DNA from: Methanothermobacter thermautotrophicus str. Delta H
Lineage (GTDB): Archaea; Methanobacteriota; Methanobacteria; Methanobacteriales; Methanothermobacteraceae
Length of the DNA stretch: 32,000 nt
Direction of reading: 5' to 3'
Assembly: GCF_000008645.1 (NCBI RefSeq)
Contig: NC_000916.1
Span: 210,001 to 242,000, forward strand
Position numbers and translations under genes: made by a program. This document shows positions 6,620-32,000 of the stretch, in pieces. The notes beneath the pieces were generated by a model. That model saw nothing but the letters and a program-made list of their open reading frames with translations. It was not told the origin of the DNA and did no database searches. Positions within the stretch are counted from its first letter, which is position 1; the number at the start of each line of letters is the position of its first letter.

Positions 6620-6642
6620 TGGATGATCCCTCACATGATATG

Positions 6643-6690
6643 GCACATATATGTGCTGCACACAGTACCTTGTACCACACAGTATATAAA
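6643..6690 (-). promoter_or_regulatory. PadR-operon promoter: TATA-like box (6683-6690) plus a perfect 14-bp palindrome gcacatatatgtgc (6643-6656)
   Basis: Read on the minus strand, TTTATATA is followed ~25-30 nt later by the palindrome, about 25 nt upstream of ATG 6619. That geometry fits an autoregulatory operator over the transcription start. Confidence 0.45.
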
Positions 6691-12390: not shown

Positions 12391-12510
12391 TGGTGGTGTG
12401 TCCGTGTGAATTCTGCAGTGGGTGCTGAATTATTTATGGGGGATGATGGTGTATCTCTACGTCCTGGTTTAGGAGGTACTGAATCTGTACTGGAATCATG
12501 GAGGTATATT

Positions 12511-15622: not shown

Positions 15623-15688
15623 GTGTCTTCATAGTCTGAATGGACAATATAAGAAAAATAAAAAAGGGATATCAGCTCACCATCCATT

Positions 15689-16198
15689 TCAAGTGCAGAA
15701 CTTTCCTGATGGAGTTAACAGGTTACCACGGGCCGTGATACCAAAGAATACCACATCCTCAGGTCCGTAGCCCTCATCGAAGCTCCAGTCTGTTGTTTCA
15801 AAATAGGCCCTTTCACCTGGTCCCAGGGTGTTTATGAGGGATGACCCTCTGAATACCGGAGCCATTCCAATGGCTATGAGATCTCCATCACTGTTAAATC
15901 CCTTGACCCAGACATAATCGATATGCATGGCTGAGCTGTATCTGTTCTGGATCTCCCCTTTCACAACATAGTCTCCAGTGTAATCTGAGAAGACAGTGTA
16001 GTTGAGGACCTCTACCTGGGCTTTACTCTCGATGACCTCATCGACAGCTGACGACCCATTAATATGACCCAACACAAAACTGAGGAATCCCACTATTAGT
16101 AAGGATATTATGATCAGGGTTGCCTTTGTAAAGGTACTCCTTCTACTCCACCATCCACCTGATCTGCCAGTTTTTCCATCATCAACATCTGAAGACAT
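15689..16198 (-). CDS. N-terminally anchored membrane protein with FxLYD/DUF3426-like beta-sandwich ectodomain (paralogue A)
   Basis: 169 aa: MSSDVDDGKTGRSGGWWSRRS, a TM helix, then ...VEVLNYTVFSDYTGDYVVKGEIQNRYSSAMHIDYVWVKGFNSDGDLIA. The domain call is by eye. Confidence 0.6.
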   Translation of the reverse strand: MSSDVDDGKTGRSGGWWSRRSTFTKATLIIISLLIVGFLSFVLGHINGSSAVDEVIESKAQVEVLNYTVFSDYTGDYVVKGEIQNRYSSAMHIDYVWVKGFNSDGDLIAIGMAPVFRGSSLINTLGPGERAYFETTDWSFDEGYGPEDVVFFGITARGNLLTPSGKFCT

Positions 16199-16235
16199 TA
16201 AATCACCTTATTAAGTCAATCAAAGCTTAAGTCCT

Positions 16236-16682
16236 CTAAAAAACGTGTGCTTGTGTTTGAAGTCCAACAGTAAGAATGTTGGGATGTTCCTCCCAGATGA
16301 TCCCTTCGATTCTGGTCTTCTTACCAGGGGGGAGTACATAATACCCAAAAGCCCACCCATGCAAACGATCTTCACTTGAGTTAAAACCTGTTATGCTGAT
16401 ATCATCAACAAACACGGTTTCTTCATAGTTGTTCTGAATCTCAAAGGTGATATTGTAAATACCGTCATGATCATGAGTTATGGTGTAATTTACGATATTC
16501 ACATGAAATCTTTCATCGTCCATTTCTGTGGCAGAGTCCACCCCCTCGCTGTAACCCAGTGAGTAGGTGATGCATACCCAGAGTATTATGCCGAGGATTA
16601 TGATACCCTTTCTGCTGTAACTGCTCCTTTTACTCCACCATCCACGTAATCTGCCAGTTTTTCCGTCATCATCTGAAGACAT
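16236..16682 (-). CDS. paralogue B of the 15689..16198 protein
   Basis: 148 aa: MSSDDDGKTGRLRGWWSKRS, a TM helix, then ...VNIVNYTITHDHDGIYNITFEIQNNYEETVFVDDISITGFNSSEDRL. The architecture and N-terminal motif match the neighbouring gene. Confidence 0.6.
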   Translation of the reverse strand: MSSDDDGKTGRLRGWWSKRSSYSRKGIIILGIILWVCITYSLGYSEGVDSATEMDDERFHVNIVNYTITHDHDGIYNITFEIQNNYEETVFVDDISITGFNSSEDRLHGWAFGYYVLPPGKKTRIEGIIWEEHPNILTVGLQTQAHVF

Positions 16683-17211
16683 ATTATATCACCTTATTCA
16701 TTAACTGTTCTGTTTTATTATTAACTTGTTCAATAATTACAGCATAATTGAATGTTTATATAATTAAAAGTTTCTATTTGAAATTTAGATGTCAATTTAA
16801 TTAACTCATAATTAATTATTGAATCTGACTACTTCAAAAAATGTTTTTAACTTATAAATTGAAATTTAAAAAATAACTGACATTATCTGGAATCATTCTC
16901 TCTTCTGTTTCTATCTTTGAGACTTCAGATTCTTTATCCGTTATTTTCCCGCCCGTCCATCTGCAGTAACTTCTGTTTGCAGTCAGATCACAATTAAATG
17001 ACCATAAACTCAGTGTTTTTGCTGCTGAAGGTGTTTCTTATGTAACCGTGACCTTTGAGTTACATAAGAAGCCGGTACTCGCCGGACGTGAAACACCGAA
17101 TCTCCGCCGGCAGGCCTTAAAATGGTTATTATCCTGTCAGTTCCCCCAGATATTCCATTTAAAGATTTTTTCGAAAAAATATTTATTATATCATGTTTAT
17201 AGATCAGAAAG

Positions 17212-18906
17212 GTGATTGAAATGGGCTCTGCAGCTTTATTAAGACCAGAATCCCTCGATGAAAAGATAACACTTTCAATGAGCATTTCTGTACTCACAAT
17301 ATCCGTCATGGCACTGATTCTATGGTTAACCGGGGCACTCCAGACACCCAAGGTTGGACCCTTCCTTGATAAGGACCCGACCATATTCATGAGCTTCATT
17401 CTCCTGGCCGCCGCCATACTCGCCCTGAAGGCTTCTAGGAAAGTAACATCCCTCGTTCTATCACTGATGGTCCTGGCCATCCAGTTCTCTGGAGGTAGCC
17501 AGCCCCTCCACCCTCAGGCATGGACAGTAACATCCATGATAATCATATCATACTCCACTGCAGTGATCCTTTTTTCAATTGAAAGATACTCGGCTGCCCA
17601 GATAATCAGTTACACTGCGGGTACAGTGGCATATGCACTGTTCCTATCAGAGATTACAGGGATTACGGAAACAGAGCCGCATTTCAGGGCATGCATAACC
17701 TCTGCTGCAATGATGGTGTTCCTGGCCATAGGTCTCCTCAGCACCCACCCATCCCATGGTGTTGTGGAGCCACTCTATTCAGGGAGGATCGGGGGCTACA
17801 CCGGGAGGATGCTGATACCCATCGTGATAGGGTCCCTGACCCTCACGTCATTCATAGTAATCAGCGGCAGCAGCCACATACCATTCTCTGCCGATGTCTT
17901 CCTGGCCACCCTGAACCTGGCACTTTTAATTGTAATAATAACATTCACAGCCTACAAACTCAACGTGGTGGATTATGAGAGAATAAAAAATCAGAGGAAA
18001 AGCCAGAGGATGTGGAGGTTCTTCAGGAATGTTGTGGATAACCTTGAGGAGGCGGTGGCGGTCCTGGACCGTAACGGGGAAGTCCTGCACAGCAACACCG
18101 CGATGAAGAACCTGGAACTGGACCTCAGGAGACTGTGGAGGGAAAACCTGGAGGGTAAGGATCTTCCACAGCCCATAGGAACCATCAGGTCAGGTGGGAG
18201 GTACTTCACGGGATGGGCCATACCCCTGGATGATGGTGGGATCATATCCCTGATGGATATAAGCGGGCTTGTGGAGGTACAGGAGGACCTGCGGTCATCC
18301 CTCAGGGAGAAGGAGGCGCTGCTGAGGGAACTTCAGCACAGGGTCAGGAACAACCTTCAGATAATCACAAGCCTCATAAACATCCAGCTTCAGGATGCAG
18401 ATGGCCCGGTAAAGGAGGCGCTCCTGGCTACCCAGACCAGGGTGAGGGCCATGACCATAATACAGGAGTCACTCTACAGCACTGATGGCTACAGCAGTGT
18501 ACACATCGAATCATGCATCTCCCGGATGACAGAGCACCTCAAATCCCTGCTGGGTGCACATGGTGTGGGATTCAATATCAGGGCTGACCTCAGACTCAAC
18601 CTTGAAACAGCAATGCCCCTCTGCCTCATGGTGAATGAGCTTGTGACAAATGCCATAAAACATGCATTCCCTGAGGGGAAGGGAGAGGTCCACATTGAGA
18701 TAGATGAGGGGGAATCGGGGTACCACATGCGCTTTGCAGATGATGGCATTGGGTTCAGTGGGGAGGGGGAAGGCACCGGCCTGAAACTTGTAAGGATCCT
18801 TGTGGAGCAGCTTGAGGGTGACCTGAAGATACTTGTAGATGAGGAGAAAGGGGGGACAGAGATACTGGTGCCCTTCAGGGAACTCCAGTACAGGGAGAGG
18901 ACCTAG
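17212..18906 (+). CDS. membrane sensor histidine kinase (multi-TM N-terminus, PAS-like linker, HisKA_2 + HATPase_c)
   Basis: H-box LLRELQHRVRNNLQIITSLINIQ, N-box NELVTNAIKHAF, DDGIGF and GTGLKLVRILVEQLEG. About 7-8 hydrophobic helices lie in the first 260 aa. The likely start is ATG 17221 after AAAGGTGAT. No response regulator is adjacent. Confidence 0.9.
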   Translation: MIEMGSAALLRPESLDEKITLSMSISVLTISVMALILWLTGALQTPKVGPFLDKDPTIFMSFILLAAAILALKASRKVTSLVLSLMVLAIQFSGGSQPLHPQAWTVTSMIIISYSTAVILFSIERYSAAQIISYTAGTVAYALFLSEITGITETEPHFRACITSAAMMVFLAIGLLSTHPSHGVVEPLYSGRIGGYTGRMLIPIVIGSLTLTSFIVISGSSHIPFSADVFLATLNLALLIVIITFTAYKLNVVDYERIKNQRKSQRMWRFFRNVVDNLEEAVAVLDRNGEVLHSNTAMKNLELDLRRLWRENLEGKDLPQPIGTIRSGGRYFTGWAIPLDDGGIISLMDISGLVEVQEDLRSSLREKEALLRELQHRVRNNLQIITSLINIQLQDADGPVKEALLATQTRVRAMTIIQESLYSTDGYSSVHIESCISRMTEHLKSLLGAHGVGFNIRADLRLNLETAMPLCLMVNELVTNAIKHAFPEGKGEVHIEIDEGESGYHMRFADDGIGFSGEGEGTGLKLVRILVEQLEGDLKILVDEEKGGTEILVPFRELQYRERT

Positions 18907-18985
18907 CAGTTAAACCATGGAGGTGAATGGAATACGGTGGCTGGCATCTGACATGTACTGTCACTGTATCTGAGGGGGGAAACAT

Positions 18986-19519
18986 TTGATAGGAATGAAC
19001 TCCATAGATATTTATATGACCCTTGAGGAGAGAATATCCTCGGCCTTCCGGATGGATGAGGAAACATGGTTGAGGCATGCAAATCCATGGAGTGTCTGGA
19101 CAAGACTCACGGCACTGCCCCTTCTTGTTGCAGCGTTCTGGAGCAGGGAGTGGCTGGGCTGGTGGGCTATCATACCGGTAACCCTCGCGGTCCTCTGGAC
19201 CTATCTGAATCCCAGGATATTTAAAAGACCGGAATCTACGGACAGCTGGGCATCCAGGTCGGTTCTCGGTGAGAGGGTCTGGTTGAACCGTGATAGGATC
19301 CCTGTACCCGAGCATCACAGGAGGGTCCCGGTCATACTGAACCTCATAGCAGCCACCGGGACGGTCCCCATTGTTTGGGGTGTCTACCGCCTGGAGGTGT
19401 GGCCGCTCTTACCTGGATTTGCAATGGTCTACCTTGGCAAGCTGTGGTACCTTGACAGGATGGTCTGGCTGTACCAGGACATGAAGGAAAACCCTGAATA
19501 CAGGGACTGGCTCTATTGA
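18986..19519 (+). CDS. membrane protein, unknown function
   Basis: 177 aa with several Trp-rich hydrophobic segments (LPLLVAAFWSREWLGWWAIIPVTLAVLW). It is on the same strand as, and just downstream of, the kinase. Confidence 0.55.
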   Translation: MIGMNSIDIYMTLEERISSAFRMDEETWLRHANPWSVWTRLTALPLLVAAFWSREWLGWWAIIPVTLAVLWTYLNPRIFKRPESTDSWASRSVLGERVWLNRDRIPVPEHHRRVPVILNLIAATGTVPIVWGVYRLEVWPLLPGFAMVYLGKLWYLDRMVWLYQDMKENPEYRDWLY

Positions 19520-19662
19520 TGGTTTTCCTGTTCTCCACAACTTTCTGGCTTTTTCTTATATTTCATGAATACTGAGCGGCCAATTTAATAGTTCTCCATG
19601 AATCCGGGACATAAAAACTAACCGGAACTTTGAGATCTGGAGTTTAAAAATCTGATATTGGA

Positions 19663-20127
19663 TTAGATGGCTTTAGGAGGTCTTCCCCGATACTTCATGG
19701 CCTCTTTCCGGATTTCCTGCCGGGCCTCTTCGTCCCATAGATATATCCGTACATAATCAGTTCCCATGAAAATAATATGCCCGCACTCATATTCCCTGTA
19801 TCTTTTTTCGTACATTATTCCGTCCTTCTCGTACCATGGAACATCATAACTGTACGAGAAGGGAGCCCCACAGTAGGGGCACCTTGATTGGTCCACCCAG
19901 TTCTCTGGCATTGGCTTGATTCTGTCAATGCTTTCGTTATTGGATGAGGTCGGGTTCTTTATTGTGTTAACATCATAACTGAAGGAATTATTCTGTGAAT
20001 CCACCTCAACGTTGAGCATCATACCCGCCATAAATGAAAGCGCCCCAAAGAGAACAAGACAAACTACAATCAATATTTTTGTCAGTTTATCCACTGATAT
20101 TCCCCCTGAATCAAAATATTGAAGCAC
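19663..20127 (-). CDS. N-terminally anchored protein with Cys/His cluster, unknown function
   Basis: 154 aa with one TM helix (ILIVVCLVLFGALSFMAGMML), then CPYCGAP...YECGH. Confidence 0.55.
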   Translation of the reverse strand: MLQYFDSGGISVDKLTKILIVVCLVLFGALSFMAGMMLNVEVDSQNNSFSYDVNTIKNPTSSNNESIDRIKPMPENWVDQSRCPYCGAPFSYSYDVPWYEKDGIMYEKRYREYECGHIIFMGTDYVRIYLWDEEARQEIRKEAMKYRGRPPKAI

Positions 20128-20374
20128 CTCTGATGATAATATAAAAAAACTTTAATATATAGTAATAGTCCATAATCTATATCGAAGGCGCTGAATGAGG
20201 ATTCTACATACATAAACCCGGTATCAGGACCGTGAATGGATCAGGGGACGTCCTGTGAAGACAGGGAATCTGCTGGTAGGAATGCGTGGATAAATTGCTC
20301 AAACAGCACTGCTCCATGAACCCAGTTTATGTTATACGGGGTGATTTTTTTGGATAGGGGAGCAAGGGTTCTTC

Positions 20375-20719
20375 TTGTGTTATGTTTCATCATGGTGGGG
20401 GCAGTGGCCTTTAATGGCAGGGATACTTTTCGAAGAGGTTCAACACAAAGGGGATTCACCCATATCATCAGATAGTGATACCCTCAATAGGAAACCTGCT
20501 GTAGATTATTCGGTGGATATGGGGGAGGATTCCGGGACAGACTCAGCCCGTCCACCGGGGGCTGCACCAGGCCATCGCATACGGGGCCCAGTCTACTATT
20601 TATATGATGATGAAATCACCCATGGATGGGTGGCCTGGTACTATGATGTGGATGCAGGACAGTACTTCTCGGAATATGACTCATGGGACCCCAATGCAGG
20701 TGCTACCATGATTAATTAA
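20375..20719 (+). CDS. hypothetical protein (weak call)
   Basis: 114-aa ORF. The only plausible internal start is MAGILFEE. The C-terminus is aromatic-rich (YYLYDDEITHGWVAWYYDVDAGQYFSEYDSW). I see no SD or motif. Confidence 0.3.
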   Translation: MCYVSSWWGQWPLMAGILFEEVQHKGDSPISSDSDTLNRKPAVDYSVDMGEDSGTDSARPPGAAPGHRIRGPVYYLYDDEITHGWVAWYYDVDAGQYFSEYDSWDPNAGATMIN

Positions 20720-21024
20720 CCAGAGCATCTGCCGCCAGGTGAATTATTAGTTACAGGGATAATCCTGGAGAAAGCTTCATTTCAATATTTTTATTAAATG
20801 GTGTACCGGACCACACGTTCGTAATAGAGAACTATTACGAAGTTCACCATCCCTCATTAGGCCTCCACCTTTAGGCTTCCCTGAGGCTTAAGCCGGAGGA
20901 CCCACCGTTAAACCTTTTCCAGATGAGGGTATACATTTATATTGTACAGTGTGCAGAATGACTGCATGGGATCATATAATGGTTCACTTCGGGGATCTGA
21001 TCCCTGAGCCAGGGGGGTTATATT

Positions 21025-21144
21025 ATGGTTTACTGTCGTGAATGCGGGGAGCTTAATCGTGATGGGGCAAACTACTGTCTTAAATGTGGCAGCCCCTCAG
21101 GGGGAGTGAAGGGGAGGATACCAGGCCTCAACCGGCCCGGATGA
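21025..21144 (+). CDS. 39-aa zinc-ribbon mini-protein, or the N-terminal Zn-ribbon of the next gene separated by a frame break
   Basis: My translation is MVYCRECGELNRDGANYCLKCGSPSGGVKGRIPGLNRPG, with CxxC-x12-CxxC. Its TGA (21142-21144) overlaps ATG 21141 of the next ORF as ATGA. Confidence 0.5.
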   Translation: MVYCRECGELNRDGANYCLKCGSPSGGVKGRIPGLNRPG

Positions 21145-22343
21145 AGGCGGGTCCAAGGACCATAACACTCACGGCCAGTGACGACACTGAAAACCTGGGC
21201 AGACTGACCCCTGAGATCCTCAGGATGGACAATGAAACACTCATGAAATGCAACGATGAGATAAAGGAGCTCGTGAAGAAAAGGAGGATCAGAAGAGGCG
21301 ACTTTGAGGGGTCCATGGAGGAACTCATGGCTGAGATAAGATCAAGACTCGAGGCACTGAGTGGGGAGCTCAGGGCACTGAGTCCGCAGCTTCTAAGGGT
21401 CACGGTGGAGATCGACAGGAGTAAACCTGATGTGAAGATCACAACATCCCTGGATAAGGACCGCATGGAAGGCTACCTTGAGAAGATTAAGAGCAGGCAG
21501 CTCTCAGACCAGTCCCCGGCAGCCCCATCATGGAGGGACCTCTGCCCTGTCTGCAGGGAAGCACCATTAACACCATTCCCAAAAAGGAGGGTCCCTGGAA
21601 GGTCTAAGAGGAATATGCGCTGCAGTAACTGCGGCGCAGTCTTCATTTACAAGGGAAATGGGTACCTTCTCAGCAGGGTCTCAAACAGGAACACCAGGGC
21701 CTGGCGCCTGTACGGTGGGAAGACACTCACAGAGGAGGAATGGACCAGGATAGCAAATGGCGGAGTATCCAATGAACTCCAGAGGGAGATCCAGAGAAAG
21801 AGGGATATTGAAGAGAGAAGGAGGGACATTGAAGGATGGCTTAAAAGTGCAGCAGAGGGGAATGTCACATTCAGAGAGCCCCAAACTCCCATAATACTCA
21901 GGAAGAACGAGAGGGCGGTCCTCGTACTCCACAACATTGACCTCTACGAACCGAGGGCCGTTAGAAGGACTGCCGGCGGATACGGGGGCCCCACCATAAG
22001 GGTGTCAAAGAATCTCTCATTCAGGATGGGGGCCCTCAATGCCATAAGCGAATCCCGTGACGAACTCCGGAGGATAGACACCGGTACACTGACCCTGACG
22101 ACACGGAGGATGATATTCACAGGGACAAAGAGGACAACGAACATAGACCTCAGGAAGGTCCTAGCCATCCAGCCCTACACCAATGGCATAGCGGTCCAGA
22201 GGGAGAACAAGAAGAGAACTGAACACTTCCTCAACACGGAAAAAACACTGCTGAACATCACCCACTCCGGGAGGACCCACACAGTCCCCGCAGATGGTGC
22301 GGTGATGAAGGCGGTGATTGAGGGACTTATAAGGAAGCTCTGA
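21141..22343 (+). CDS. coiled-coil / internal Zn-ribbon / C-terminal bacterial-PH (YokE-like) domain protein
   Basis: The track ORF 21084..22343 has its frame opening at 21084, and ATG 21141 gives MKAGPRTITL... Motifs include CPVCREAP...CSNCGAVF. The C-terminal pattern IDTGTLTLTTRRMIFTGTKRTTNIDLRKVLAIQPYTNGIAVQ is typical of bPH-type domains (by eye). Confidence 0.65.
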   Translation: MKAGPRTITLTASDDTENLGRLTPEILRMDNETLMKCNDEIKELVKKRRIRRGDFEGSMEELMAEIRSRLEALSGELRALSPQLLRVTVEIDRSKPDVKITTSLDKDRMEGYLEKIKSRQLSDQSPAAPSWRDLCPVCREAPLTPFPKRRVPGRSKRNMRCSNCGAVFIYKGNGYLLSRVSNRNTRAWRLYGGKTLTEEEWTRIANGGVSNELQREIQRKRDIEERRRDIEGWLKSAAEGNVTFREPQTPIILRKNERAVLVLHNIDLYEPRAVRRTAGGYGGPTIRVSKNLSFRMGALNAISESRDELRRIDTGTLTLTTRRMIFTGTKRTTNIDLRKVLAIQPYTNGIAVQRENKKRTEHFLNTEKTLLNITHSGRTHTVPADGAVMKAVIEGLIRKL

Positions 22344-22372
22344 CCAAAAAATAACTCAGAGGAGAGAATAAC

Positions 22373-25007
22373 TTGAGAGGAACTCTAAAGAAGATTGGGG
22401 GGATAGAATTTGGTCTCATGTCCCCAGAGGATATCAGGAAGATATCCGTCGCCCAGATCGTCACCCCGGACACCTACAACGAGGACGGGTACCCCATAGA
22501 GAACGGACTCATGGATCCCAGGCTCGGTGTGATAGACCCCCGGTTCCGCTGCTGGACCTGCGGCGCAAGGGGAGGGGAGTGCCCGGGACACTTCGGGAGC
22601 ATAAACCTTGCAAGGCCGGTCATACACGTGGGATTCGCAGACACCATACACAAGATCCTGCGGTCAACCTGCAGAAAATGTGGGAGGGTCCTCCTCACCG
22701 GGACTGAAATCGAGGAATATATCAGAGGATACTTGAAGCCATGGAGAAAGAGGAAAACTTCACGCCACTGGTAAACAGGGTATACTCCCTTGCAAGGAGG
22801 GACAGGTGCCCCCACTGTGAGGAGGAACAGCAGGAGATCAAACTCGACAAGCCCGTCTCAATCGTCGAGGGAGACTACAAGCTCACACCCAGTGAGGTGA
22901 AGGAGCGTCTTGAGAGGATAAGCGATGACGACGCCCTCATCCTCGGTGTCAACCCCCAGGTTGCAAGGCCAGAATGGATGGTCCTGACAGTCCTCCCGGT
23001 CCCCCCGTAACGATGAGGCCCTCAATCACCCTCAAAAACGGTGAAAGGTCAGAGGACGACCTGACCCATAAACTGGTCGATATACTCAGGATAAACCAGC
23101 GCCTCAAGGAGAACATGGAGGCAGGGGCTCCCCAGCTGATCGTGGAGGACCTCTGGGAACTCCTGCAGTACCATGTGACCACCTACTTCGATAACGAGGC
23201 CTCTGGTGTAACCCCTGCAAGGCAACGATCTGGAAGGCAGCTGCTGACGTTAATGCAGCGCTTAAAGAGCAAAAAGGGGATGTTCAGCAGTGAACTTTCA
23301 AAAGGACGGTTTAGGGGCAACCTTTCAGGTAAGAGGGTTAACTTCTCTGCCCGTACTGTCATCTCCCCGGATCCCAACATCAGCATAAACGAGGTGGGTG
23401 TCCCTGAAATCATAGCCAGGGAGGTTACCGTACCGGTCTACGTCACAGAATGGAACATAGACCGTATGAGGGAGTACATAGAAAACGGGCCAGACGTCCA
23501 CCCGGGAGCCAACTACGTCATAAGACCCGACGGACGCAGGATAAGAATCTCCTCTAAAAACACGGAAACTGTCATTGAGAACCTGAAACCTGGATACGTG
23601 GTTGAGAGACACCTCAAGGATGGTGACATCGTACTGTTCAACCGTCAACCATCCCTCCACAGGATGTCCCTCATGGCCCACCGGGCCCGTGTACTGCCCT
23701 ACAAGACCTTCCGCCTCAACCTGTGTGTATGCCCACCCTACAACGCCGACTTTGACGGTGACGAGATGAATATTCATGTACTGCAAACAGAGGAGTCCAG
23801 GGCAGAGGCAAAAACCTTAATGCTCGTCCAAGAACACATGATATCCCCCAGATTCGGGGGGCCTATAATAGGTAGTATAAATGACCAGATATCTGGATTG
23901 TATCTCCTCACAAGAAAATTTGCAGAATTTGAAGAGGAAGAGGTATTCCAGCTACTTAGAAGCGCTGGAATTTCATTACCATCTAGAAGGGGCACTAAAT
24001 GGAGTGGTAAAGAAATATTTAGCCTGATACTCCCAGATGACCTCAGCATGACCTACAGGGCAGATGTATGCAGAAGATGTCAGGAATGCATCGAAGATGG
24101 ATGTGAATATGATGCATATGTAGTAATAGAAAATGGAAGGCTCGAATCAGGCGTTATTGACAAAAAAACATGCGGGGCATTTTCAGGTAGATTGCTGGGA
24201 CATATAATCAGGGAATATGGTACTGATGAGGCCCGTGAATTCTTGGAATCAGCCAGCAGGCTGGCCATAGCAGTACTCATGAGGACAGGGTTCACGACAA
24301 GTATCATGGACTTTGACGTGCCCGAAGAAGCTAGACAAATGATAGATTCAGTGCTTGGAATGGTTATGGATCGTGTGGAAGGGCTCACTGAGGACAAGGA
24401 GGATGGGAGAGTCGAACCAGTGCAAGTAATGAGTTCGGAGAAGAACTTTGAGATTACGATAATGAAGGTCCTGGCCGGGGCAAGGGAGAGGGGAGGGGAA
24501 ATAGCCAGGAAGTACCTTGGGGTGGATGGAAACCAGGGATATATGATAACCCGGACGGGTCTGAAGTGTTCATTGCTTAACTTCACCCAGATAACAGCCT
24601 GTTTGGGGCAGCAGTCCGTCAGGGGTGAGCGTATCAGCAGGGGATACGATAACAGGACACTCCCTCACTTCAGGAAGGGAGAGCTCGGGGCAAAGTCCCG
24701 GGGATTCGTACAATCAAGTTACAGGGAAGGTCTGGATCCCATTGAATTCTTCTTCCACGCCATGGGTGGAAGGGATGCCCTCGTGGATACAGCCGTCCGC
24801 ACAGCCCAGAGCGGTTACATGCAGAGGCGTCTCATAAACGCTCTCCAGGACCTCACAGTCGATGAGGATGGCAGGGTAAGGGATAGCTGCGGTAACGTGA
24901 TTCAGATACTCTACGGCGAGGACGGGGTAAGCCCCTGGAGGGGGAAAAATGGCGAAATAGTGGATCTGGAACAGCTGGTCTATGAGATCAGGAGAAAAAG
25001 CCCATGA
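22373..25007 (+). pseudogene. rpoA1: DNA-directed RNA polymerase subunit A' (Rpo1N) paralogue, split into three frames; orphan (no rpoH/rpoB/rpoA'' neighbours)
   Basis: Three collinear ORFs, 22373..22774 (frame 2), 22741..23010 (frame 1) and 22974..25007 (frame 3), together give a full-length A'. Landmarks are the Zn site [25 protein letters not shown]|[36 protein letters not shown] and catalytic NADFDGDEMN (23742-23771). The frame breaks are at ~22718-22740 (tatat) and at or next to C6 23001-23006. Confidence 0.9.
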
Positions 25008-25087
25008 ACTGATCTCTGATTCTGAAGCAGACCATTTAAGAGCCATCAGAGGAAATTCCTTAAAAAATACATACCAGCATCTAAAGA

Positions 25088-25100
25088 CTTTATTTTTTTT
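25088..25100 (+). terminator. oligo-T terminator (ctttaTTTTTTTT) downstream of the rpoA'-like gene
   Basis: T8 at 25093-25100, about 85 nt after the stop at 25007. Confidence 0.45.
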
Positions 25101-25282
25101 GAATTGTTTAAACGGGACCAGCCATCGTTAATTATGAAACCACTGCCATCACTGCCCTTGCAGTGCTTCCAGTTATTCAGTGGCTACCATCCAGGCAACG
25201 CAACAAGCGGCTTCGATGGGATTTCATCAGCTGACATAAACTAGATATACCCTGAGATACAGATACATAGCTGGGAATCTAT

Positions 25283-25801
25283 ATGAGACGTGCTTTAATT
25301 TTGATGGCCATGATATGCTCCACTTTAGCTATCTCTGGCTGTACACAAACAGGTAACAACACCTTATCTGAGAGTACAGGTGTGCCGGTGGCCGAAGTGC
25401 CTGAAATAGCCTACAGGGTTTCAGTTGCCAGTGGAACCATAGATTCAATAGAATATAAGGGCCTCAACCTTTCAATGAACCAGTGCCTCTACATATTCGC
25501 CCGGGCCATAGTCATGCTGGACAGTAACGATAAGGGTAACATACCGGTAAGGGAATATGGCAACCCTGAGAGTCCTGATGGCCGGTTAAGCTCCGCAACA
25601 TTAACAAGGGCCGAGTATGTTGACATGGCCGGCAGGACCTACAGGTGGATGGATTCAGAATGGAAGGGTCCGAATCATGTTGGAATAAGGCAGGAGGGGG
25701 CAGGGGACCTCTCACCGGATATCCTGCTCAGGGCATTTGTCAGGGTCCTCACAGAGTACAGGTCCACGGGTAAACTCCCTGACAGGGTTACTGTACCATG
25801 A
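25283..25801 (+). CDS. secreted lipoprotein with pseudomurein-binding-repeat-like segments
   Basis: Signal peptide plus lipobox MRRALILMAMICSTLAISGC. The segments LSMNQCLYIFARAIVML and LLRAFVRVLTEYRSTGKLPDRVTV resemble PMBR units (by eye). Confidence 0.6.
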   Translation: MRRALILMAMICSTLAISGCTQTGNNTLSESTGVPVAEVPEIAYRVSVASGTIDSIEYKGLNLSMNQCLYIFARAIVMLDSNDKGNIPVREYGNPESPDGRLSSATLTRAEYVDMAGRTYRWMDSEWKGPNHVGIRQEGAGDLSPDILLRAFVRVLTEYRSTGKLPDRVTVP

Positions 25802-25850
25802 TAGAAGAGAATATCGGGTAAACTCCCTGACACCATGATAGAAGAGAATA
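25768..25850. repeat. local tandem duplication spanning the stop codon of the 25283..25801 gene
   Basis: gggtaaactccctgaca[gggttactgta]ccatgatagaagagaata lies at 25768-25813. It is repeated at 25816-25850 without the bracketed 11 nt. Confidence 0.9.
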
Positions 25851-25890
25851 CCAGTGATATGCCCACCTTCTGTGCCTTTAAGGGATTCCT

Positions 25891-26436
25891 CTAACCAGTG
25901 ACAGACCCGAATAAATTCTGGAAGAACTGTATTATGCTGTTTATGAAGCCCTGGATTGCTTCAAGGACCCCTCCCTGGGCCTCCTCTGTCCCGGTCCCGT
26001 TACCGGTATATGTGAGGGGTTTGCCGCCTGAGGATCCTGTTTCAGTCTTCCCATCTATTTTTGCACTTATTATTTTTCCGCTTTCTGCATCAACATAGAT
26101 GGTCCCGACGATGTTCCCTGAGCTGTCGCGGACCCTCACAACCCATGCATCAGCTATGTACTTGTATTTACCGGTTCCCTCAAATGCATCCTCTTTATAT
26201 TCCCCGAAGGGTATCCATTTAACCTCCCCGGTCTTATTAACCCTCACCTTCGCCTTCCAGTCACTGTAGGCAGGGGTCATGGCCGTGTAGGGCAGACCCT
26301 TTGAGTCCAGGTAGTCCTGTGCCAGTGCCGTTGCCTGGGCCCTCTCAATAATGGGTCCGGAGTCGGCAGAAACCGTTCCAAGAAAAACCAGAACGGTTAA
26401 TATGGATAGAAGTTTTGCAAAGTTCTTAAGGTACAT
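25891..26436 (-). CDS. secreted protein, PepSY-like domain (tentative)
   Basis: 181 aa with an N-terminal signal/anchor, MYLKNFAKLLSILTVLVFLGTVSA. AQATALAQDYLDSKGLPY...VYVDAESGKIISAKIDG resembles PepSY (by eye). Confidence 0.5.
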   Translation of the reverse strand: MYLKNFAKLLSILTVLVFLGTVSADSGPIIERAQATALAQDYLDSKGLPYTAMTPAYSDWKAKVRVNKTGEVKWIPFGEYKEDAFEGTGKYKYIADAWVVRVRDSSGNIVGTIYVDAESGKIISAKIDGKTETGSSGGKPLTYTGNGTGTEEAQGGVLEAIQGFINSIIQFFQNLFGSVTG

Positions 26437-26505
26437 AAAACACCTCCCTCATAATTTATGTTATGAAAAGCATATAGTTCTTTGCCTTTTTTTGGTTGAA
26501 GGAGG

Positions 26506-27543
26506 TCACTGGAGGAGGTCCCACATCCCTCTGACAAGGAAAATGGCTTCAATACTGTACTCGACCATGTCAGCCATGGCATCCATGTGCCCTTCAAGGG
26601 CTTCCCTTCCACCTGACTCCTCAATGAGGTTGCTGAAGGTGTCACGGTCTGAGAGGTATCCCGGTATCTCGGTGATGGTGCTGTGGACACCCCCACTGGA
26701 GGGGTCCCTCATGGAGACCAGGAAGGTTGAGGGGACACCTGCAACTGAGAATGGGAGGTAAACGTGGCTTATGGCCTGCTCGCCCGCCGGTGTTGAGGCC
26801 GCCATGAAATCAACCACATCGGCCCTGATACCGTGAAGGCGGGCGTTGAGGGCAATTAGGCCGACAAGGGCTGGGCTGCTGTCAGCGTAGTAGTCCCTCC
26901 TCACAATGCAGGGGCTCCCCATGCCCATGGCCTCCAGGCTGATAACCGCAATGGTTCTGTTCACCTCCTCCTGCCTGTTAAGGACGTGGTGCCTTGCACC
27001 TACCAGGTAGGGCAGATAGACTATCTGGTGGTATGCGTCAGGGGAGAGGGACGTCCTTTTCGGGGTTACCAGGGGGAAGGTGAAGCCATCCTCCCCGGCA
27101 CCGAAGGCGATGAGTTTGATTGTGTATGGTGGCCTCCGGTCATGGTACCTCTCTGCAATTTCAAGGAGCAGTGCAAGTCCGGTTGCATCATCGTTGGCCC
27201 CGGATGAGTAGTTCCCGCTCACGGGATCCACAGGAGTGTCCAGATCGGCGCAGATTATGATTTCACGCTCTGAATCACCCTCAATGGTGGCTATAACATT
27301 GCATGACCTCCTCACCCCCGGAGAGGTTAATGAGTAGTACCTGAATTCCTCCAGCTCCGTCTTTATCCCCATGGCCTGGAACCGTGAGGCAATGTACTCG
27401 GCGGCCATCCTTTCACTGGCTGAACCGGCGGGTCTTGGACCCACATCCTCTGAAAGGTGCTTCACTTCCCCCACCATATCCACGGGGTGAACCGGCTGGA
27501 TCGAAAAAATCAGAATGATAATGATCAGGGCCTTTAACTTCAT
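26506..27543 (-). CDS. secreted M28-family (aminopeptidase-like) metallopeptidase homologue
   Basis: Signal peptide MKLKALIIIILIFSIQPVHP. GANDDATGLALLLEIAERY matches the M28 GAxDDxSG block, and the overall length and order are M28-like. Confidence 0.75.
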   Translation of the reverse strand: MKLKALIIIILIFSIQPVHPVDMVGEVKHLSEDVGPRPAGSASERMAAEYIASRFQAMGIKTELEEFRYYSLTSPGVRRSCNVIATIEGDSEREIIICADLDTPVDPVSGNYSSGANDDATGLALLLEIAERYHDRRPPYTIKLIAFGAGEDGFTFPLVTPKRTSLSPDAYHQIVYLPYLVGARHHVLNRQEEVNRTIAVISLEAMGMGSPCIVRRDYYADSSPALVGLIALNARLHGIRADVVDFMAASTPAGEQAISHVYLPFSVAGVPSTFLVSMRDPSSGGVHSTITEIPGYLSDRDTFSNLIEESGGREALEGHMDAMADMVEYSIEAIFLVRGMWDLLQ

Positions 27544-27693
27544 ACAACCACACTGATATTATGTCGCCCGGGTAATTAAATCATGGCATGATCAGATCTT
27601 CTGCCCGCCATACTGGTAAAGTTGTGATCTTTCTGCAGAAACCAGAGGGCTGAAGGATTTCCTGTCCTGAACCTGGCTGATAAAGGTTGGAGC

Positions 27694-28155
27694 TTAACCG
27701 GACGGCTGCATGCCCTGATCCTGTTCCTCATCATTCAATGAGTCAAGGATGGCTTTAATTTTCTCTGTAAACTCACGGAAGTCACTCAGGTGTTCCTGGA
27801 GTATTCTGAATGTTATACGGTCGTCTATCTTCCCGTACCGGCGCACCACGATATTCCTGAAGCCCCTCATGGCCTTTATCTTTTTGAATGTGTCCTCATC
27901 GATTATGCCTGATCTGAGGAGGTTCTCCAGGACCTCGCCATCGGAACCTGGCACGCCAAGGTTGAGGTCAGAGTTGAGGATTGAACATATGTCATAGACG
28001 TTTTCAACTGCAAATTCAAGTCTCTTATACATCCCGTCCCTTATGAGCCCAAGTTCTGAGAATTCACCGAAACTTTCAGGAAGGTTCTCCTCTATGAGTC
28101 CCACACTCTCCTCAATTTCGCGTATCTTGGTGAGTACAACGACCTTTCTGACCAT
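27694..28155 (-). CDS. hepT: HepT-like HEPN (DUF86) toxin with variant active-site motif
   Basis: The probable start is ATG 28155 (MVRKVVVL...) after GGGGGTGTGAG, 10 nt downstream of the MNT stop. The motif FRNIVVRRYGKIDD (27835-27858 encodes RNIVVRRY) aligns to the canonical RNxxxHxY with Arg in place of His. Confidence 0.75.
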   Translation of the reverse strand: MVRKVVVLTKIREIEESVGLIEENLPESFGEFSELGLIRDGMYKRLEFAVENVYDICSILNSDLNLGVPGSDGEVLENLLRSGIIDEDTFKKIKAMRGFRNIVVRRYGKIDDRITFRILQEHLSDFREFTEKIKAILDSLNDEEQDQGMQPSG

Positions 28156-28165
28156 CTCACACCCC

Positions 28166-28555
28166 CTAACCCATCCTTTCAAGGCCAATGTAATCATAGA
28201 ATCTATGTCTGAAGTCATCGAAGTCCCTGATGGTCTTCCAGGCGGTATCATAGAGGAATCTTTGATCATCACAGTAGATGACCTCACCCCTGAGTACCTC
28301 AACCTGGACGTAGAGTGGTAATTGCTGGAAGATCTGGACGTCGAAAATCTCATCAACCTCACTCAGGACCCGGAACCTGTAGTATGATGCCTCATCCTCT
28401 TCAGCATCATAGTAAATTGCCAGGTCTATATCAGACCATTCACCGCCCCTGAGGGCGGAACCGTATAGTATTATGAAACGGATCCTCTCTGAGCCCTCAA
28501 TTTTCCTGATTACCCTCAGGAACCTGTCGACGTGTTTTCTGATAACTTCATCCAT
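28166..28555 (-). CDS. mntA: MntA-like minimal nucleotidyltransferase antitoxin
   Basis: 129 aa. ILYGSALRGGEWSDIDLAIYY carries the GSxxRG...DxD motif of the MNT/Pol-beta superfamily. It lies directly upstream of the HEPN gene. Confidence 0.85.
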   Translation of the reverse strand: MDEVIRKHVDRFLRVIRKIEGSERIRFIILYGSALRGGEWSDIDLAIYYDAEEDEASYYRFRVLSEVDEIFDVQIFQQLPLYVQVEVLRGEVIYCDDQRFLYDTAWKTIRDFDDFRHRFYDYIGLERMG

Positions 28556-28703
28556 ACCTTATGTTCTGTCTTTCATTTTTAGTATCCCTTTGCTTTGCAG
28601 CAGATATCACAGTAGAGTCATCCATTGTATATGATCATGCTTCTCTGGGGGCTTCTGAATAAATAGTAAATGATAATAATGAATACAGTCAAGATATCTA
28701 CCG

Positions 28704-29723
28704 GTGTTTCATGTGCTGGGATCCCTCTATGAAGAAGCGGCCCTCAGGGGGAGGATGCTGAAATCCTCAGCTGAATCCAGGCTCCAGGAACTTCCTGATG
28801 TCAGTGAATACTGGATCAGGCATGAGTCCATGGATGACTCACTCTCAACTGCAGCGGCTGATGGGGGCTCGGGTTTTAAGGAATTTTCAGGCCTCATACT
28901 CGCAGCCATCAACACCGCCGTGCTCTCAGATTCGGGTGAGATTGTTGAGGGGAGCTTCCTGGACATCCTAGGACCCCAGTCAGGCATAAGGGAGCGGGTG
29001 AGGAACCTCACAGCCATATGTGAATTCAAGAACAGCATAATCGCCATGGAGGACCTCCAGCCCGACCTCCTCATCCTGGACGGCTCCCTCATAGGGACCA
29101 TCCTGAGGCCTGTGAAGTATGATGGGGTTCTGGGGAATGATGTTAAGGGATGGATAAGGAGTCACTGCCTGAGGGAGGTGGCAGCATCAATGGATGGGGT
29201 CCATGTACATTCAAGGTCCATGGAGGACACCATCAGGGACGCCCTAAGGTCTGAAAGACCCGTGGTTTACCTTGAGGGCATTGAGAGGATGGTATCCATA
29301 TGGAAGCTACTCAAGAAGAGCAGGGACATCGTGGCGGTATCTGAGAGGTCAACCATGTCAGACATATTCGGGGATATGTCTGATCTCTCTGTATTCAATA
29401 CACTCACAGCTGGCCCCGGCCACTCCGTCCCGATTCACAGAGAACTATCAGGTCTCAAGGGCAGGTTCCCTGTCCTTGATGCGTTCTTCAGCAGCCTTGA
29501 ATTCACGGTGTTCTATGCCAAGCTCGAGGAGAACGGCAGGGTCCTTAAATTCGAGGTACCGCGACGTCTGGGCACCGCTGAAATTGGTGAATACCTTGAG
29601 GGTCTCAGGGCATCATCGGCGGACGGCTACCCCCACATCCTCAGAAGGGTGAAGGAGGATGTAAGGATAACAGCCTCTGAGATGGATATCATCGCCGGGA
29701 TGGTCCTTGAGGGCCTCATCTAA
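28704..29723 (+). CDS. nurA: NurA-like nuclease
   Basis: 339 aa. AADGGSGF and LLILDGSLIG match the conserved NurA acidic DGS motifs. It overlaps and is coupled to the downstream HerA-type ATPase. Confidence 0.65.
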   Translation: MFHVLGSLYEEAALRGRMLKSSAESRLQELPDVSEYWIRHESMDDSLSTAAADGGSGFKEFSGLILAAINTAVLSDSGEIVEGSFLDILGPQSGIRERVRNLTAICEFKNSIIAMEDLQPDLLILDGSLIGTILRPVKYDGVLGNDVKGWIRSHCLREVAASMDGVHVHSRSMEDTIRDALRSERPVVYLEGIERMVSIWKLLKKSRDIVAVSERSTMSDIFGDMSDLSVFNTLTAGPGHSVPIHRELSGLKGRFPVLDAFFSSLEFTVFYAKLEENGRVLKFEVPRRLGTAEIGEYLEGLRASSADGYPHILRRVKEDVRITASEMDIIAGMVLEGLI

Positions 29724-31182
29724 AGATACTGGAGGTTCGGTCTTGGGATTCGTGGGAAGGTGCTATGGTGAGACATCACCCTGGAGGGTGAGTTTCGTAT
29801 CAAGGGAGATGCCCGGGGTTGGCGAGTACGTTGTGATGGAGTATGATGGACGGAGAATACTGGGGATGGTGGAGTCGCTCCTACGGGGCGTCCCGGGCGT
29901 CACCGAGGACCTGAATGACCCTGAGACGGTTGAGAGGATAATCAGGGTCACAGGGGGGAGGCAGTACGTCAGGGGCACCGTCAGGATACTGGGTGATGTT
30001 GAAACCCTGGAGATACCAAGGGTGCCGCCAGGTCCAGGGACGGAGGTGAGGTCAGCCGACCCGGAGACCCTCGGGAGGATATTCGGGCGCGGAAACCTGA
30101 CCCTCGGGAGGCTGCTCACAGCCGACGCACCATTCACTGTTGACATCAACCGCATGGTCACAAGGCACCTGGCGGTCCTTGCAGTCACAGGGGCGGGTAA
30201 ATCCAACACCGTGGCGGTGATAGTGGACGGGCTCCTCAGGGCAGGGGGTACCGTCATAATCTTCGACATGCACTCAGAGTACGTCAACGCCAGGTTCACA
30301 GGTGGAAGGGTTAACAGAATAGGGGCATCCATAAACCCTGCCCACCTCTCACTCAGAGAGATTAAGAGACTCAGCAACGTCAGGGATAACGCCTACGTCC
30401 AGGAAAGGTACCTTGCAAGGGCCCACAGGAGGGTAAGGTCCGGGATGAAGGATGGCAGCTCATCACCAGCTGAATTCTTCAGGAGGATGGATGAGAAACT
30501 GGATGAGCTTCTCTCAGAGAACAGCAGCGACAGGAGGAGCATAATCGATGTCCAGAACAAGCTGGAGCACATGCGTGAATCCTATGAGGAGATAATAGAC
30601 CTTGAGTCTGAGGGGATAATTGAGAGGCTCAGATTAAACCATGTCAATGTGATCGACCTCGGCTCAGTGGATGAGACAGGTTCCGATGTCATTGTGAGTC
30701 ATGTGCTCCAGGAGGTCCTCCAGAGCAGGAAGGAGTATCTCAGGCATGGAACTGGCCTTGAGACACCAGTATTCATGGTCCTTGAGGAGGCCCACATCCT
30801 CGCACCCTCTGACCGGCCAACCGAGTCAAGGTACTGGATAGGCAGGGTCGCCAGGGAGGGGAGGAAGTTCGGGGTCGGCCTCTGTCTGGTGAGCCAGAGC
30901 CCCAAGTCCCTTGACCATGAGGCCCTCTCCCAGGCCAACAATATGATCGTAATGCGCCTCATTGAACCCAATGACCAGCTGCATGTCCAGAGGGCCAGTG
31001 AGGCCCTCAGTGATGACCTCCTCTCACACCTCCCCTCACTGAACATCGGGGAGGCGGTTGTGGTCGGCCTCATGGCACCCTTACCGGCCATTGTGAGGAT
31101 AGAGGAATTTGAGGGTAAGCTCTCGGGCGGTGACCTTGACGTTGCCGGGATATGGAGTGGTATGCGGGTAGGGGATGAGTAG
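29707..31182 (+). CDS. herA: HerA/DUF87-type FtsK-like hexameric ATPase/helicase
   Basis: There is an N-terminal HAS-barrel-like region (GEYVVMEYDGRRILGMVESL), Walker A AVTGAGKSNT, Walker B VFMVLEEAHI and the segment GVGLCLVSQSP. The likely start is TTG 29743, 6 nt after GGAGGT (29731-29736). Confidence 0.85.
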   Translation: MRASSKDTGGSVLGFVGRCYGETSPWRVSFVSREMPGVGEYVVMEYDGRRILGMVESLLRGVPGVTEDLNDPETVERIIRVTGGRQYVRGTVRILGDVETLEIPRVPPGPGTEVRSADPETLGRIFGRGNLTLGRLLTADAPFTVDINRMVTRHLAVLAVTGAGKSNTVAVIVDGLLRAGGTVIIFDMHSEYVNARFTGGRVNRIGASINPAHLSLREIKRLSNVRDNAYVQERYLARAHRRVRSGMKDGSSSPAEFFRRMDEKLDELLSENSSDRRSIIDVQNKLEHMRESYEEIIDLESEGIIERLRLNHVNVIDLGSVDETGSDVIVSHVLQEVLQSRKEYLRHGTGLETPVFMVLEEAHILAPSDRPTESRYWIGRVAREGRKFGVGLCLVSQSPKSLDHEALSQANNMIVMRLIEPNDQLHVQRASEALSDDLLSHLPSLNIGEAVVVGLMAPLPAIVRIEEFEGKLSGGDLDVAGIWSGMRVGDE

Positions 31183-31249
31183 TTTGCTGCCGCATCTCCA
31201 TGTCTTTGGGGGTAAAGGATAAGTATCTTGATGTGTAAAGTATTCTACA

Positions 31250-31684
31250 GTGGTATTCATGACAGAGTCAGATTTTAGGGATTTCTATGATGTGCTTGTT
31301 GAAAACCTTGAATCATATAATGGGGAGTACGCATCCTTCATAGATTACGGGCCGAAACTCTTCAAGTTACTCACGGATTTTCTGGGCTATGAGCACCTTA
31401 AAGGCCAGCTTAAACTTAAGATTAGCGCTGCAATAGCCTACTACGTTGTTCCCATGGACATCATACCGGAGACAGTATACGGTGCATATGGCTACATCGA
31501 CGACATATTCATAACAGCATACGTTATAAGGATCCTGGCGGACGTTTACGGCTATGATCTACTCTCAGAGTACTGGGATGGGAAGGATGACCTTGAGGAG
31601 GTCGTCGAGCTCTGCTATGAGAGGTCAAAGGATGTCCTGAGGGATAAAACCAGTGATGTTCTGGATTATGTGGGGTTGCTCTGA
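31250..31684 (+). CDS. DUF1232 (YkvA-like) domain protein
   Basis: AAIAYYVVPMDIIPETVYGAYGYIDDIFITAYVI matches the DUF1232 Y..P.DlIP....G..DD signature. An ATG is at 31259. Confidence 0.7.
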   Translation: MVFMTESDFRDFYDVLVENLESYNGEYASFIDYGPKLFKLLTDFLGYEHLKGQLKLKISAAIAYYVVPMDIIPETVYGAYGYIDDIFITAYVIRILADVYGYDLLSEYWDGKDDLEEVVELCYERSKDVLRDKTSDVLDYVGLL

Positions 31685-32000
31685 TCAGCTATTCTCAGGA
31701 ACCCTGTTCTCCCATTTCATATCTTCAAGGACTCCGAGGACGTTTCCAAGGGATTGCTTCTCTACACTGATTTCAATCAGAAGTTCGAAGCACTCATCAT
31801 CCCTGAGGATCATGCACTTCTTCATTGAGGGTATGAGGTCCCTCAGTTCATTCATGGTCTCAATGACAACGTTACCGCTCACAATACAGTTCATCATGAG
31901 GTTGAGGTTTTCGCCGTCAGGGTTTATGTAGAGTATCTCCTTCCTCTGGACACCATTATCTTCAGGTTCTTCCTTTAATGCTTCCTTCTCTGGTTCTATC
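31685..32000 (-). CDS. hypothetical protein, 5' end beyond the window
   Basis: The track ORF is 31685..31897. My translation shows the minus-strand frame stays open to nt 32000 (...EPEKEALKEEPEDNGVQRKEILYINPDGENLNLMMNCIV...). I recognised no motif. Confidence 0.45.
   Translation of the reverse strand, partial: IEPEKEALKEEPEDNGVQRKEILYINPDGENLNLMMNCIVSGNVVIETMNELRDLIPSMKKCMILRDDECFELLIEISVEKQSLGNVLGVLEDMKWENRVPENS

Follow-up and report, generated by a model that had tools for sequence, protein, structure and literature searches.

Introduction

A single RNA polymerase (RNAP) is assumed for archaea. In eukaryotes, paralogues of the largest subunit founded specialised polymerases, namely Pol I, II and III and, in plants, Pol IV and V with their NRPD1 and NRPE1 subunits, and some actinomycetes carry a second, rifampicin-resistant rpoB gene that gives an inhibitor-insensitive enzyme. 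Francisella has the paralogous RNAP subunits α1 and α2 (PMC3294249). Here we analysed a window of 32,000 nucleotides (nt) from the 1,751,377-bp genome of Methanothermobacter thermautotrophicus ΔH (NC_000916.1, 210,001-242,000), in which an additional gene for RNAP subunit A′ (Rpo1N) lies at 22373-25007 on the plus strand; coordinates are positions of this window. The gene is very probably a non-operonic second Rpo1N gene inactivated by two 1-nt deletions, a pseudogenised member of an old Methanothermobacter paralogue family that we call A′2.

The locus itself was already known, as it has been annotated as A′ fragments since 1997. Its three open reading frames (ORFs) correspond exactly to AAB84803.1, AAB84804.1 and AAB84805.1 (the third is 100% identical), each named 'DNA-dependent RNA polymerase, subunit A′' in GenBank. 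The abstract of the ΔH genome paper by Smith et al. from that year is said to mention a second A′ subunit-encoding gene at a remote location, which we take to be this locus. Our literature search found no description of its pseudogene status or decay series, of intact orthologues, of a genus-wide family, of the gene-conversion mosaic or of the fast pore/funnel core.

Results

A frame-broken A′ gene in the ΔH window

A preliminary description of the window had read three collinear ORFs as a nearly full-length A′ with intact motifs and two frame changes, and our analysis bears this out. The ORFs lie at 22373-22774 (frame 2), 22741-23010 (frame 1) and 22974-25007 (frame 3), and the frame of the full subunit is interrupted by two 1-nt deletions. 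Adding one T at the first break and one C at the second restores an archaeal A′ of 878 amino acids (aa). The gene is built as follows:

22373..22720, plus strand: segment 1, frame 2, residues 1-116; the ORF continues to a stop at 22774
22718..22722, plus strand: break 1, TATAT against TATTAT in intact orthologues; one T lost
22721..23006, plus strand: segment 2, frame 1, residues ~117-211; ORF called at 22741-23010
23001..23006, plus strand: break 2, a C6 run; one base lost, with an in-frame TAA directly after
23007..25007, plus strand: segment 3, frame 3, residues 212-878 and stop; ORF called at 22974-25007

The Pfam Rpb1 domain 1 is spread over the three ORFs in order (profile positions 2-110, 125-215 and 213-309), followed by domains 2, 3 and 4 and positions 1-66 of domain 5, with E-values from 1e-13 to 1e-73. 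This order, domains 1 to 5N, is the architecture of archaeal subunit A′. Segment 1 has a TTG start preceded by a GGAGAG ribosome-binding site and carries the Zn-binding motif CWTCGARGGECPGH, while segment 2 holds the second Zn motif, CRKC...CPHC. Segment 3 completes domain 1 and adds domains 2-4, the bridge helix and an N-terminal portion of domain 5; its ORF carries SGKRVNFSARTV, NRQPSLHRMS and the catalytic NADFDGDEMN. In the translations, the Zn-binding motifs, the bridge helix and NADFDGDEMN were all present. The repaired ΔH paralogue scored 1344 bits on TIGR02390 (cut-off 1042.55) and 1346.8 bits on NF006336 (cut-off 819), and the intact M. defluvii paralogue (P0001) scored 1337.7 and 1340.6 bits, respectively.

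The paralogue is a second copy

The ΔH genome contains an intact canonical A′ of 870 aa (AAB85542/O27125; 1532 bits on TIGR02390), located at ~958 kb in the re-sequenced strain (CP064324.1). It lies in an operon with the order rpoH-rpoB″-rpoB′-rpoA′-rpoA″-L30e-NusA-S12-S7-EF2-EF1α-S10. Since this operon is present in the same genome, the A′ gene in the window is a true second copy. It stands outside the rpoH-rpoB-rpoA′-rpoA″ arrangement, between a Zn-ribbon gene and a gene for a pseudomurein-binding-repeat (PMBR) protein, and neither rpoB nor rpoA″ was found within 22 kb upstream or, judging by the M. defluvii locus, 10 kb downstream. Two readings raised earlier, that this might be the sole A′ gene in an unusual context or part of a rearranged operon with rpoB and rpoA″ just outside the window, are refuted by these findings.

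Compared with the canonical A′, the paralogue has the same Rpb1 domain order, Zn motifs, NADFDGDEMN and bridge helix, and likewise scores above both family cut-offs. It is ~75% identical overall, with 90-99% nucleotide identity over most of the N-terminal half. However, it lies outside the operon, is frame-broken in ΔH and has a lower GC content at third codon positions (GC3). Its pore/funnel core is only 33-70% identical in amino acids, it has 32 substitutions at sites that are invariant in 19 canonical A′ proteins, and its ratio of nonsynonymous to synonymous substitution rates (dN/dS) is 10-40 times higher.

We also observed that the canonical A′ itself varies in length within the genus. 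In the M. marburgensis group it has 1137-1153 aa (for example L094:4001-7459) and carries a Lys/Glu-rich repeat insertion (…YNLTKQEIEKILEKIEE…); the M. tenebrarum-like canonical A′ (~1050 aa) has one as well. These insertions of 180-280 aa (P0126, P0132, P0133, P0007, P0008 and P0011) lie in Rpb1 domain 1, between VSIVE(N/G)DYKL and DYKLTPSEV. We considered an intein as the source of the larger size and rejected it by eye, since the inserted sequence is a Lys/Glu-rich repeat. The insertion agrees with an old biochemical report in which the largest RNAP subunit of Marburg has 120 kDa and that of ΔH has 96 kDa (PMC3087415).

The two breaks are lesions in a decaying gene

The frame index drops by one at each break; therefore, one base is missing at each. 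At break 1 the window reads GAATA-TATCAG where intact orthologues have GAATATTATCAG, and at break 2 it has C6 against C7 in M. defluvii and C6T (CCCCCCT) in a metagenome copy (L002). Read across the breaks, EEY continues into a further 12 residues at the first and VLPVPP continues into VTMRPSITL at the second, giving the predicted junction peptides EEYYQR and VPPVTMR. The closest full-length relatives are intact, namely the M. defluvii protein of 878 aa (98% identical, P0001) and a protein of 887 aa from a JGI metagenome contig (95%, P0002). Their loci are syntenic, with the Zn-ribbon gene, A′, the PMBR gene, a 181-aa gene, an M28 peptidase gene and HepT/MNT. The ΔH gene is 98.9% identical in nucleotides to the intact gene of M. 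defluvii, and the two 1-nt deletions are all that separates their frames.

The preliminary description had left room for the breaks being assembly errors, so that ΔH would possess an intact, working second A′. The 1997 Sanger sequence does contain errors, as re-sequencing of ΔH in 2023 revealed 448 substitutions and 247 indel bases (PMC10579436). Each break removes 1 nt from a short repeat (TT at the first, C7 at the second), and the M. defluvii orthologue is intact. However, at least 23 contigs that were assembled independently, from other strains and from metagenomes, carry both deletions at the same positions, including the complete genome of EMTCatA1 (AP018336.1) and JGI and ENA assemblies. 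The exact 133-aa ORF (AAB84803.1) was found on 19 contigs and the exact 89-aa ORF (AAB84804.1) on 28, and sister alleles hold extra lesions. Moreover, no intact ΔH-type protein appears in the 90% cluster of P0001, although the re-sequenced ΔH proteins are in the database. Because the same deletions recur in independent contigs and no intact ΔH protein clusters with P0001, we reject sequencing error and read the breaks as real lesions; the chance that ΔH has a working second A′ hidden by assembly errors appears very slight.

The alleles of the M. thermautotrophicus group and their relatives can be ordered by decay state:

Intact: M. defluvii (L001) and L002
Break 2 only: 212-aa products P0145, P0149 and P0152; loci L185 and L186
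Break 2 and another lesion: L184, in pieces of 212, 86 and 537 aa
Breaks 1 and 2: ΔH, L086, L087, L088, L092 and L093
Both breaks and one further deletion: L085 from EMTCatA1 (del@1979) and L091 (del@1065)

Break 1 (del1@348) is present in every broken allele with at least two lesions, whereas break 2 (del1@630) also occurs in alleles without break 1 (P0145, P0149). Such a graded lesion series reads as the signature of a dispensable gene, and the earlier suggestion of a decaying duplicate outside the rpo operon thus stands.

The coexistence of orthologues with zero, one, two and three lesions also bears on the idea that the paralogue is expressed despite its breaks, by programmed -1 frameshifting, by slippage during transcription or as a subunit split into three pieces in the manner of A′/A″. 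The same -1 shift would be needed at both breaks, and the sequence at break 2 formally fits the X XXY YYZ heptamer pattern (C CCC CCG), with a stop codon after it. ORF2 and ORF3 begin with ATG and overlap the preceding ORF, and ORF3 is open in most alleles. Break 1, however, lacks a slippery heptamer between the frame-1 stop (~22704) and the frame-2 stop (22774), no stable RNA structure was predicted 3′ of the breaks (z -1.20 and -1.59), and we saw no convincing Shine-Dalgarno sequence before ORF2 or ORF3. The shift is not conserved among the orthologues, which fits decay. We therefore consider expression across the breaks, or in pieces, scarcely credible.

Some assemblies of this gene were themselves unusual. 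Two ENA contigs (L089:3633-6243 and L090:3633-6243) join the broken N-terminus of the paralogue, with both deletions, to flanks of the canonical operon. Both contigs have rpoA″ downstream, and L089 also has rpoB upstream. If these joins were true, the essential A′ gene would be broken; most likely they are assembly chimerism through the near-identical stretches of the two copies. Many short-read Logan contigs (L178-L183) reach only 150-200 bp into the paralogue from its 3′ side, and assemblies appear to break where it starts to resemble the canonical gene.

The paralogue is a mosaic of converted and unconverted sequence

In a codon-wise comparison of the repaired paralogue and the canonical gene of ΔH, nucleotide identity ranged from 52 to 99% by region:

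Codons 15-460 (most): 90-99% nucleotide identity, GC3 similar
Codons 465-735 (~23770-24580): 52-78% nucleotide identity, GC3 0.23-0.53 in the paralogue against 0.50-0.80 in the canonical gene
Codons 735-825: 82-91% nucleotide identity, GC3 similar

Short divergent patches (62-82% nucleotide identity) interrupt the first region at codons 105-150, 270-300 and 375-405. The middle region defines the part specific to the paralogue:

23766..24575, plus strand: AT-rich core specific to the paralogue, codons 466-735; from the end of domain 2 through pore-1 domain 3 to the first half of funnel domain 4

Peptides such as FAEFEEEEVFQLLR and VEGLTEDKEDGR are unique to this core. Domains 3 and 4 of Pfam are pore 1 and the funnel of the secondary channel, the naming being that of the Pol II structure literature.

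An AT-rich stretch at ~23860-24400 had been noted before and ascribed to relaxed constraint or a recombined patch. The stretch is real, with a GC content of 0.42-0.45 at 23750-24350 against 0.51-0.59 in other parts of the gene, and a GC3 of 0.23-0.50 against 0.60-0.80 in the canonical gene. However, it is not a recombined patch in a decaying gene but the old paralogue-specific core, the GC-richer rest having been converted. The core GC3 of 0.45 falls within the range of the neighbouring accessory and chromosomal genes (0.44-0.69; 0.47 in the adjacent Zn-ribbon gene). For this reason we regard the core not as a compositional alien but as sequence that keeps the paralogue's own low-bias codon usage.

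Four observations indicate that the highly expressed canonical gene has overwritten the remainder of the paralogue by gene conversion. In the N-terminal region, the synonymous distance (dS) between the two copies in one genome is 0.26 in ΔH and 0.24 in THM-2/Marburg, three times below that between species for either copy (0.78 and 0.88). Trees of this region group the marburgensis-group paralogues with the canonical gene of their own group (80% bootstrap), while the ΔH-type paralogues form a separate clade. The paralogue of strain KEPCO-1 contains a 282-aa insertion typical of the marburgensis canonical gene, and allele P0149 has a canonical-type patch exactly over break 1.

ΔH and M. defluvii (L001) differ by 2-8% over 14839-23238, but right of ~23240 (23239-32000) they differ by two bases and a few single-base gaps in 8.7 kb. 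Because the divergence changes at ~23240, a recombination breakpoint lies inside the gene, near codon 273-290, and the near-identity to its right is best read as a recent tract of homologous recombination between strains. The broken N-terminal haplotype is combined with both core classes of the M. thermautotrophicus group: type I (ΔH, M. defluvii, L088 and L002) and type II (EMTCatA1 and others), which share only 66-87% nucleotide identity in most core windows.

Type I alleles further differ by a short insertion close to this boundary:

23274..23300, plus strand: in-frame 27-nt insertion KGMFSSELS of type I alleles; missing as del27@907 from type II alleles and from the canonical gene

The insertion looks like a diverged tandem copy of KGRFRGNLS, which comes directly after it. 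In the metagenome allele L002 we observed an additional 15-nt repeat near 1112-1126 (ARHRSARHRS); both are in-frame length changes just 5′ of the conserved NLSGKRVNFSARTV.

A′2 is an old family with a fast-evolving core

A second orphan A′ is also present in strains THM-2, DP, K4 and KEPCO-1 of the M. marburgensis group and in one M. marburgensis draft, with 868-873 or 1152 aa. Here it lies between a DUF169 gene and a gene for a 2946-aa surface protein, and the canonical A′ is in the operon. The ΔH-type and THM-2-type loci show little synteny: beyond A′, only a DUF1232 gene (51% amino acid identity) and a 62-aa histidine-kinase stretch (48%) are shared. In neighbour-joining trees of the core, all paralogues form one clade with 100% bootstrap, apart from every canonical Methanobacteriales sequence. 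The ΔH gene is thus not a recent, strain-specific duplicate but belongs to a family shared with the M. marburgensis group.

Each of the three lineages, namely type I, type II and marburgensis-type, keeps the 270-codon core open despite a dS of 0.6-1.8. Rough core dN/dS values were as follows:

Canonical A′, ΔH against Marburg: 0.01 (dN 0.011)
Paralogue, type I against marburgensis-type: 0.20 (dN 0.29)
Paralogue, type I against type II: 0.39

Overall, paralogue cores ranged from 0.14 to 0.39 and canonical genes were at 0.01, so the A′2 protein appears to evolve 20-30 times faster than the canonical subunit, still well below neutrality. The broken alleles are nearly identical to one another, and the long-term dN/dS of 0.15-0.39 dates from before the gene was inactivated.

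The changes are not spread evenly. Across an alignment of 19 canonical A′ proteins spanning Thermococcus to Methanobacteriales, the paralogues are changed at ~9% of the 363 invariant sites against 28-31% of the variable sites (p ~1e-13 to 1e-16). Twelve of the changed invariant positions are common to both paralogue lineages (490, 610, 626, 629, 685, 686, 691, 706, 727, 731, 732 and 785), most of them in Pfam domains 3 and 4. This pattern suggests that through the greater part of its past A′2 was functional, its secondary-channel region being relaxed or shifted, and that it was lost recently in the ΔH lineage.

The position of the core outside all canonical Methanobacteriales could also mean horizontal acquisition of the paralogue, or at least of the AT-rich core, from a virus, a plasmid or another archaeal lineage instead of duplication within Methanothermobacter; a mobile or viral source had been proposed in the preliminary description. 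The core GC3 of 0.38-0.50 against 0.62-0.67 in canonical genes would fit such an origin, as would a variable, defence-rich neighbourhood (HepT/MNT, NurA/HerA, a ClpB-like PDC-M37B/DolB-type ATPase and, in some strains, an integrase). However, an exhaustive search of 1.84 billion cluster representatives returned nothing more than 50% identical to the core, viral contigs yielded only giant-virus Rpb1 at 43% or less, and plasmids only bacterial rpoC at 26%. The low GC3 is matched by the neighbouring chromosomal genes, a basal position is expected from long-branch attraction of a fast-evolving clade, and a synapomorphy test of the core had only two informative sites. These searches give no positive support for a mobile-element or viral source, and we regard a foreign origin as unlikely.

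The paralogue lies in a variable, defence-rich region

As described earlier, the flanks of the paralogue are not rpo genes:

21026..22343, plus strand: Zn-ribbon protein gene, 439 aa, DUF7577, ATG start at 21026
25088..25103, plus strand: oligo-T run, read from the sequence, ~85 nt past the paralogue stop
25283..25801, plus strand: PMBR protein gene, 172 aa, with a lipoprotein-like signal peptide (LAISGC)

The Zn-ribbon protein has a weak, sub-cut-off match to Vps36/PH/GLUE-like domains at its C-terminus. Its gene adjoins the paralogue in all loci of the M. thermautotrophicus group (L001, L085-L092 and L184). Because the gap between them is only 29 nt, the two genes are probably co-transcribed as a two-gene unit, and the oligo-T run probably marks the end of the transcription unit. 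In some strains (L087, L088 and L090 at 809-1999) a gene for a 396-aa phage-type integrase lies directly upstream of the Zn-ribbon gene, and in others NurA/HerA takes its place. Similarity to the L088 locus begins at 20807, which indicates a variable junction.

Defence-type genes are numerous in the variable surroundings, and no tRNA gene was found in the window, whose other features include the following:

4221-6661, minus strand: FrhB/FdhB and nitrite/sulfite-reductase fusion, 689 aa, with an N-terminal HAAS domain; a PadR regulator adjoins
8924-15622, all on one strand: cluster with a ClpB-like AAA ATPase, unknown proteins, radical-SAM and DO-GTPase2
27694-28555, minus strand: candidate pair of HepT-like toxin and MNT (Polβ nucleotidyltransferase) antitoxin
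28.7-31.2 kb: NurA/HerA

The fusion protein looks like an F420-dependent sulfite reductase. In the cluster, the ClpB-like ATPase has a PDC-M37B/DolB-like match in PADLOC (E 4e-32) and is accompanied by unknown proteins of 355, 146 and 499 aa, a radical-SAM/Fer4_12 protein and a weak DO-GTPase2 match; together they may form an uncharacterised defence system. The HepT ORF is listed with 222 aa from a GTG start and is called with 153 aa in other genomes.

Discussion

Our results are best explained by an old second A′ gene of Methanothermobacter that decayed in some lineages. Repeated conversion from canonical rpoA′ would keep the N-terminal half and part of the C-terminus of A′2 near-identical to the canonical gene, while the unconverted pore/funnel core would evolve fast under some purifying selection. 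Two single-base deletions would then have inactivated the gene in the ΔH lineage, with further decay in sister lineages, whereas intact A′2 genes exist in M. defluvii and in strains of the M. marburgensis group. The ΔH copy is thus predicted to make no functional subunit. We infer that intact A′2 proteins were, or remain, functional alternative A′ subunits.

Several points weigh against this explanation. All trees are neighbour-joining trees, in which the deep placement of the paralogue clade may itself be long-branch attraction. The core dS is saturated (1.5-2), which makes the dN/dS values rough. The 677-aa ORF3 is open in most broken alleles, so an N-terminally truncated or split product is possible. 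The functionality of intact A′2 is read from sequence alone, and the otherwise intact KEPCO-1 paralogue (L095:6001-9459; P0138/P0140) has NAGFDGDEMN instead of NADFDGDEMN. Unless it is a sequencing error, this replacement of the first catalytic aspartate by glycine should abolish Mg2+ binding.

A more far-reaching version would have the intact A′2 proteins of M. defluvii, THM-2, DP, K4 and their relatives act as alternative catalytic subunits, replacing A′ in a fraction of RNAP and forming a second form of the enzyme with a remodelled pore/funnel; the system would be polymorphic and dispensable, and ΔH would have lost its allele only recently. We put this forward tentatively, as a possibility with the odds against it. 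If true, the fast diversification into three allele classes, the 12 shared positions at the pore, funnel and adjacent cleft, and the defence-rich location would fit an arms race with inhibitors entering by way of the secondary channel, or specialised transcription.

As an annotated pseudogene, the ΔH copy would alter nothing in how ΔH transcribes. Methanothermobacter as a genus, on the other hand, appears to keep, lose and reshuffle a second gene for a catalytic RNAP subunit, which could be of interest to the archaeal transcription field. In this gene the conserved parts are repeatedly replaced from the essential copy, and the secondary-channel region evolves ~20 times faster. The A′2 family, more than the ΔH pseudogene, is therefore a reasonable experimental target. 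Since genetic tools and multi-omics data exist for Methanothermobacter (PMC8609365, PMC10579436), the entry of A′2 into RNAP is directly testable. The two copies also have a practical consequence, because their near-identical stretches break or chimerise metagenome assemblies of the rpo operon, as in L089, L090 and the Logan contigs. Genes of this operon are widely used as phylogenetic markers.

Among known systems, A′2 resembles the Francisella α1/α2 subunits and the second rpoB of actinomycetes in being an extra gene for a core RNAP subunit outside the main operon. It differs from them in the subunit and the domain of life concerned, and their function has been demonstrated, whereas that of A′2 is deduced from its genes. 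The altered secondary-channel region of A′2 may have a parallel in the inhibitor-insensitive enzyme that the second rpoB provides. Like the largest subunits of Pol I, II and III and of Pol IV and V, A′2 is a duplicated catalytic subunit that evolves fast and is altered at otherwise invariant sites while its metal-binding motif is kept. Unlike them, it comes without dedicated partner subunits, and its ΔH copy is dead.

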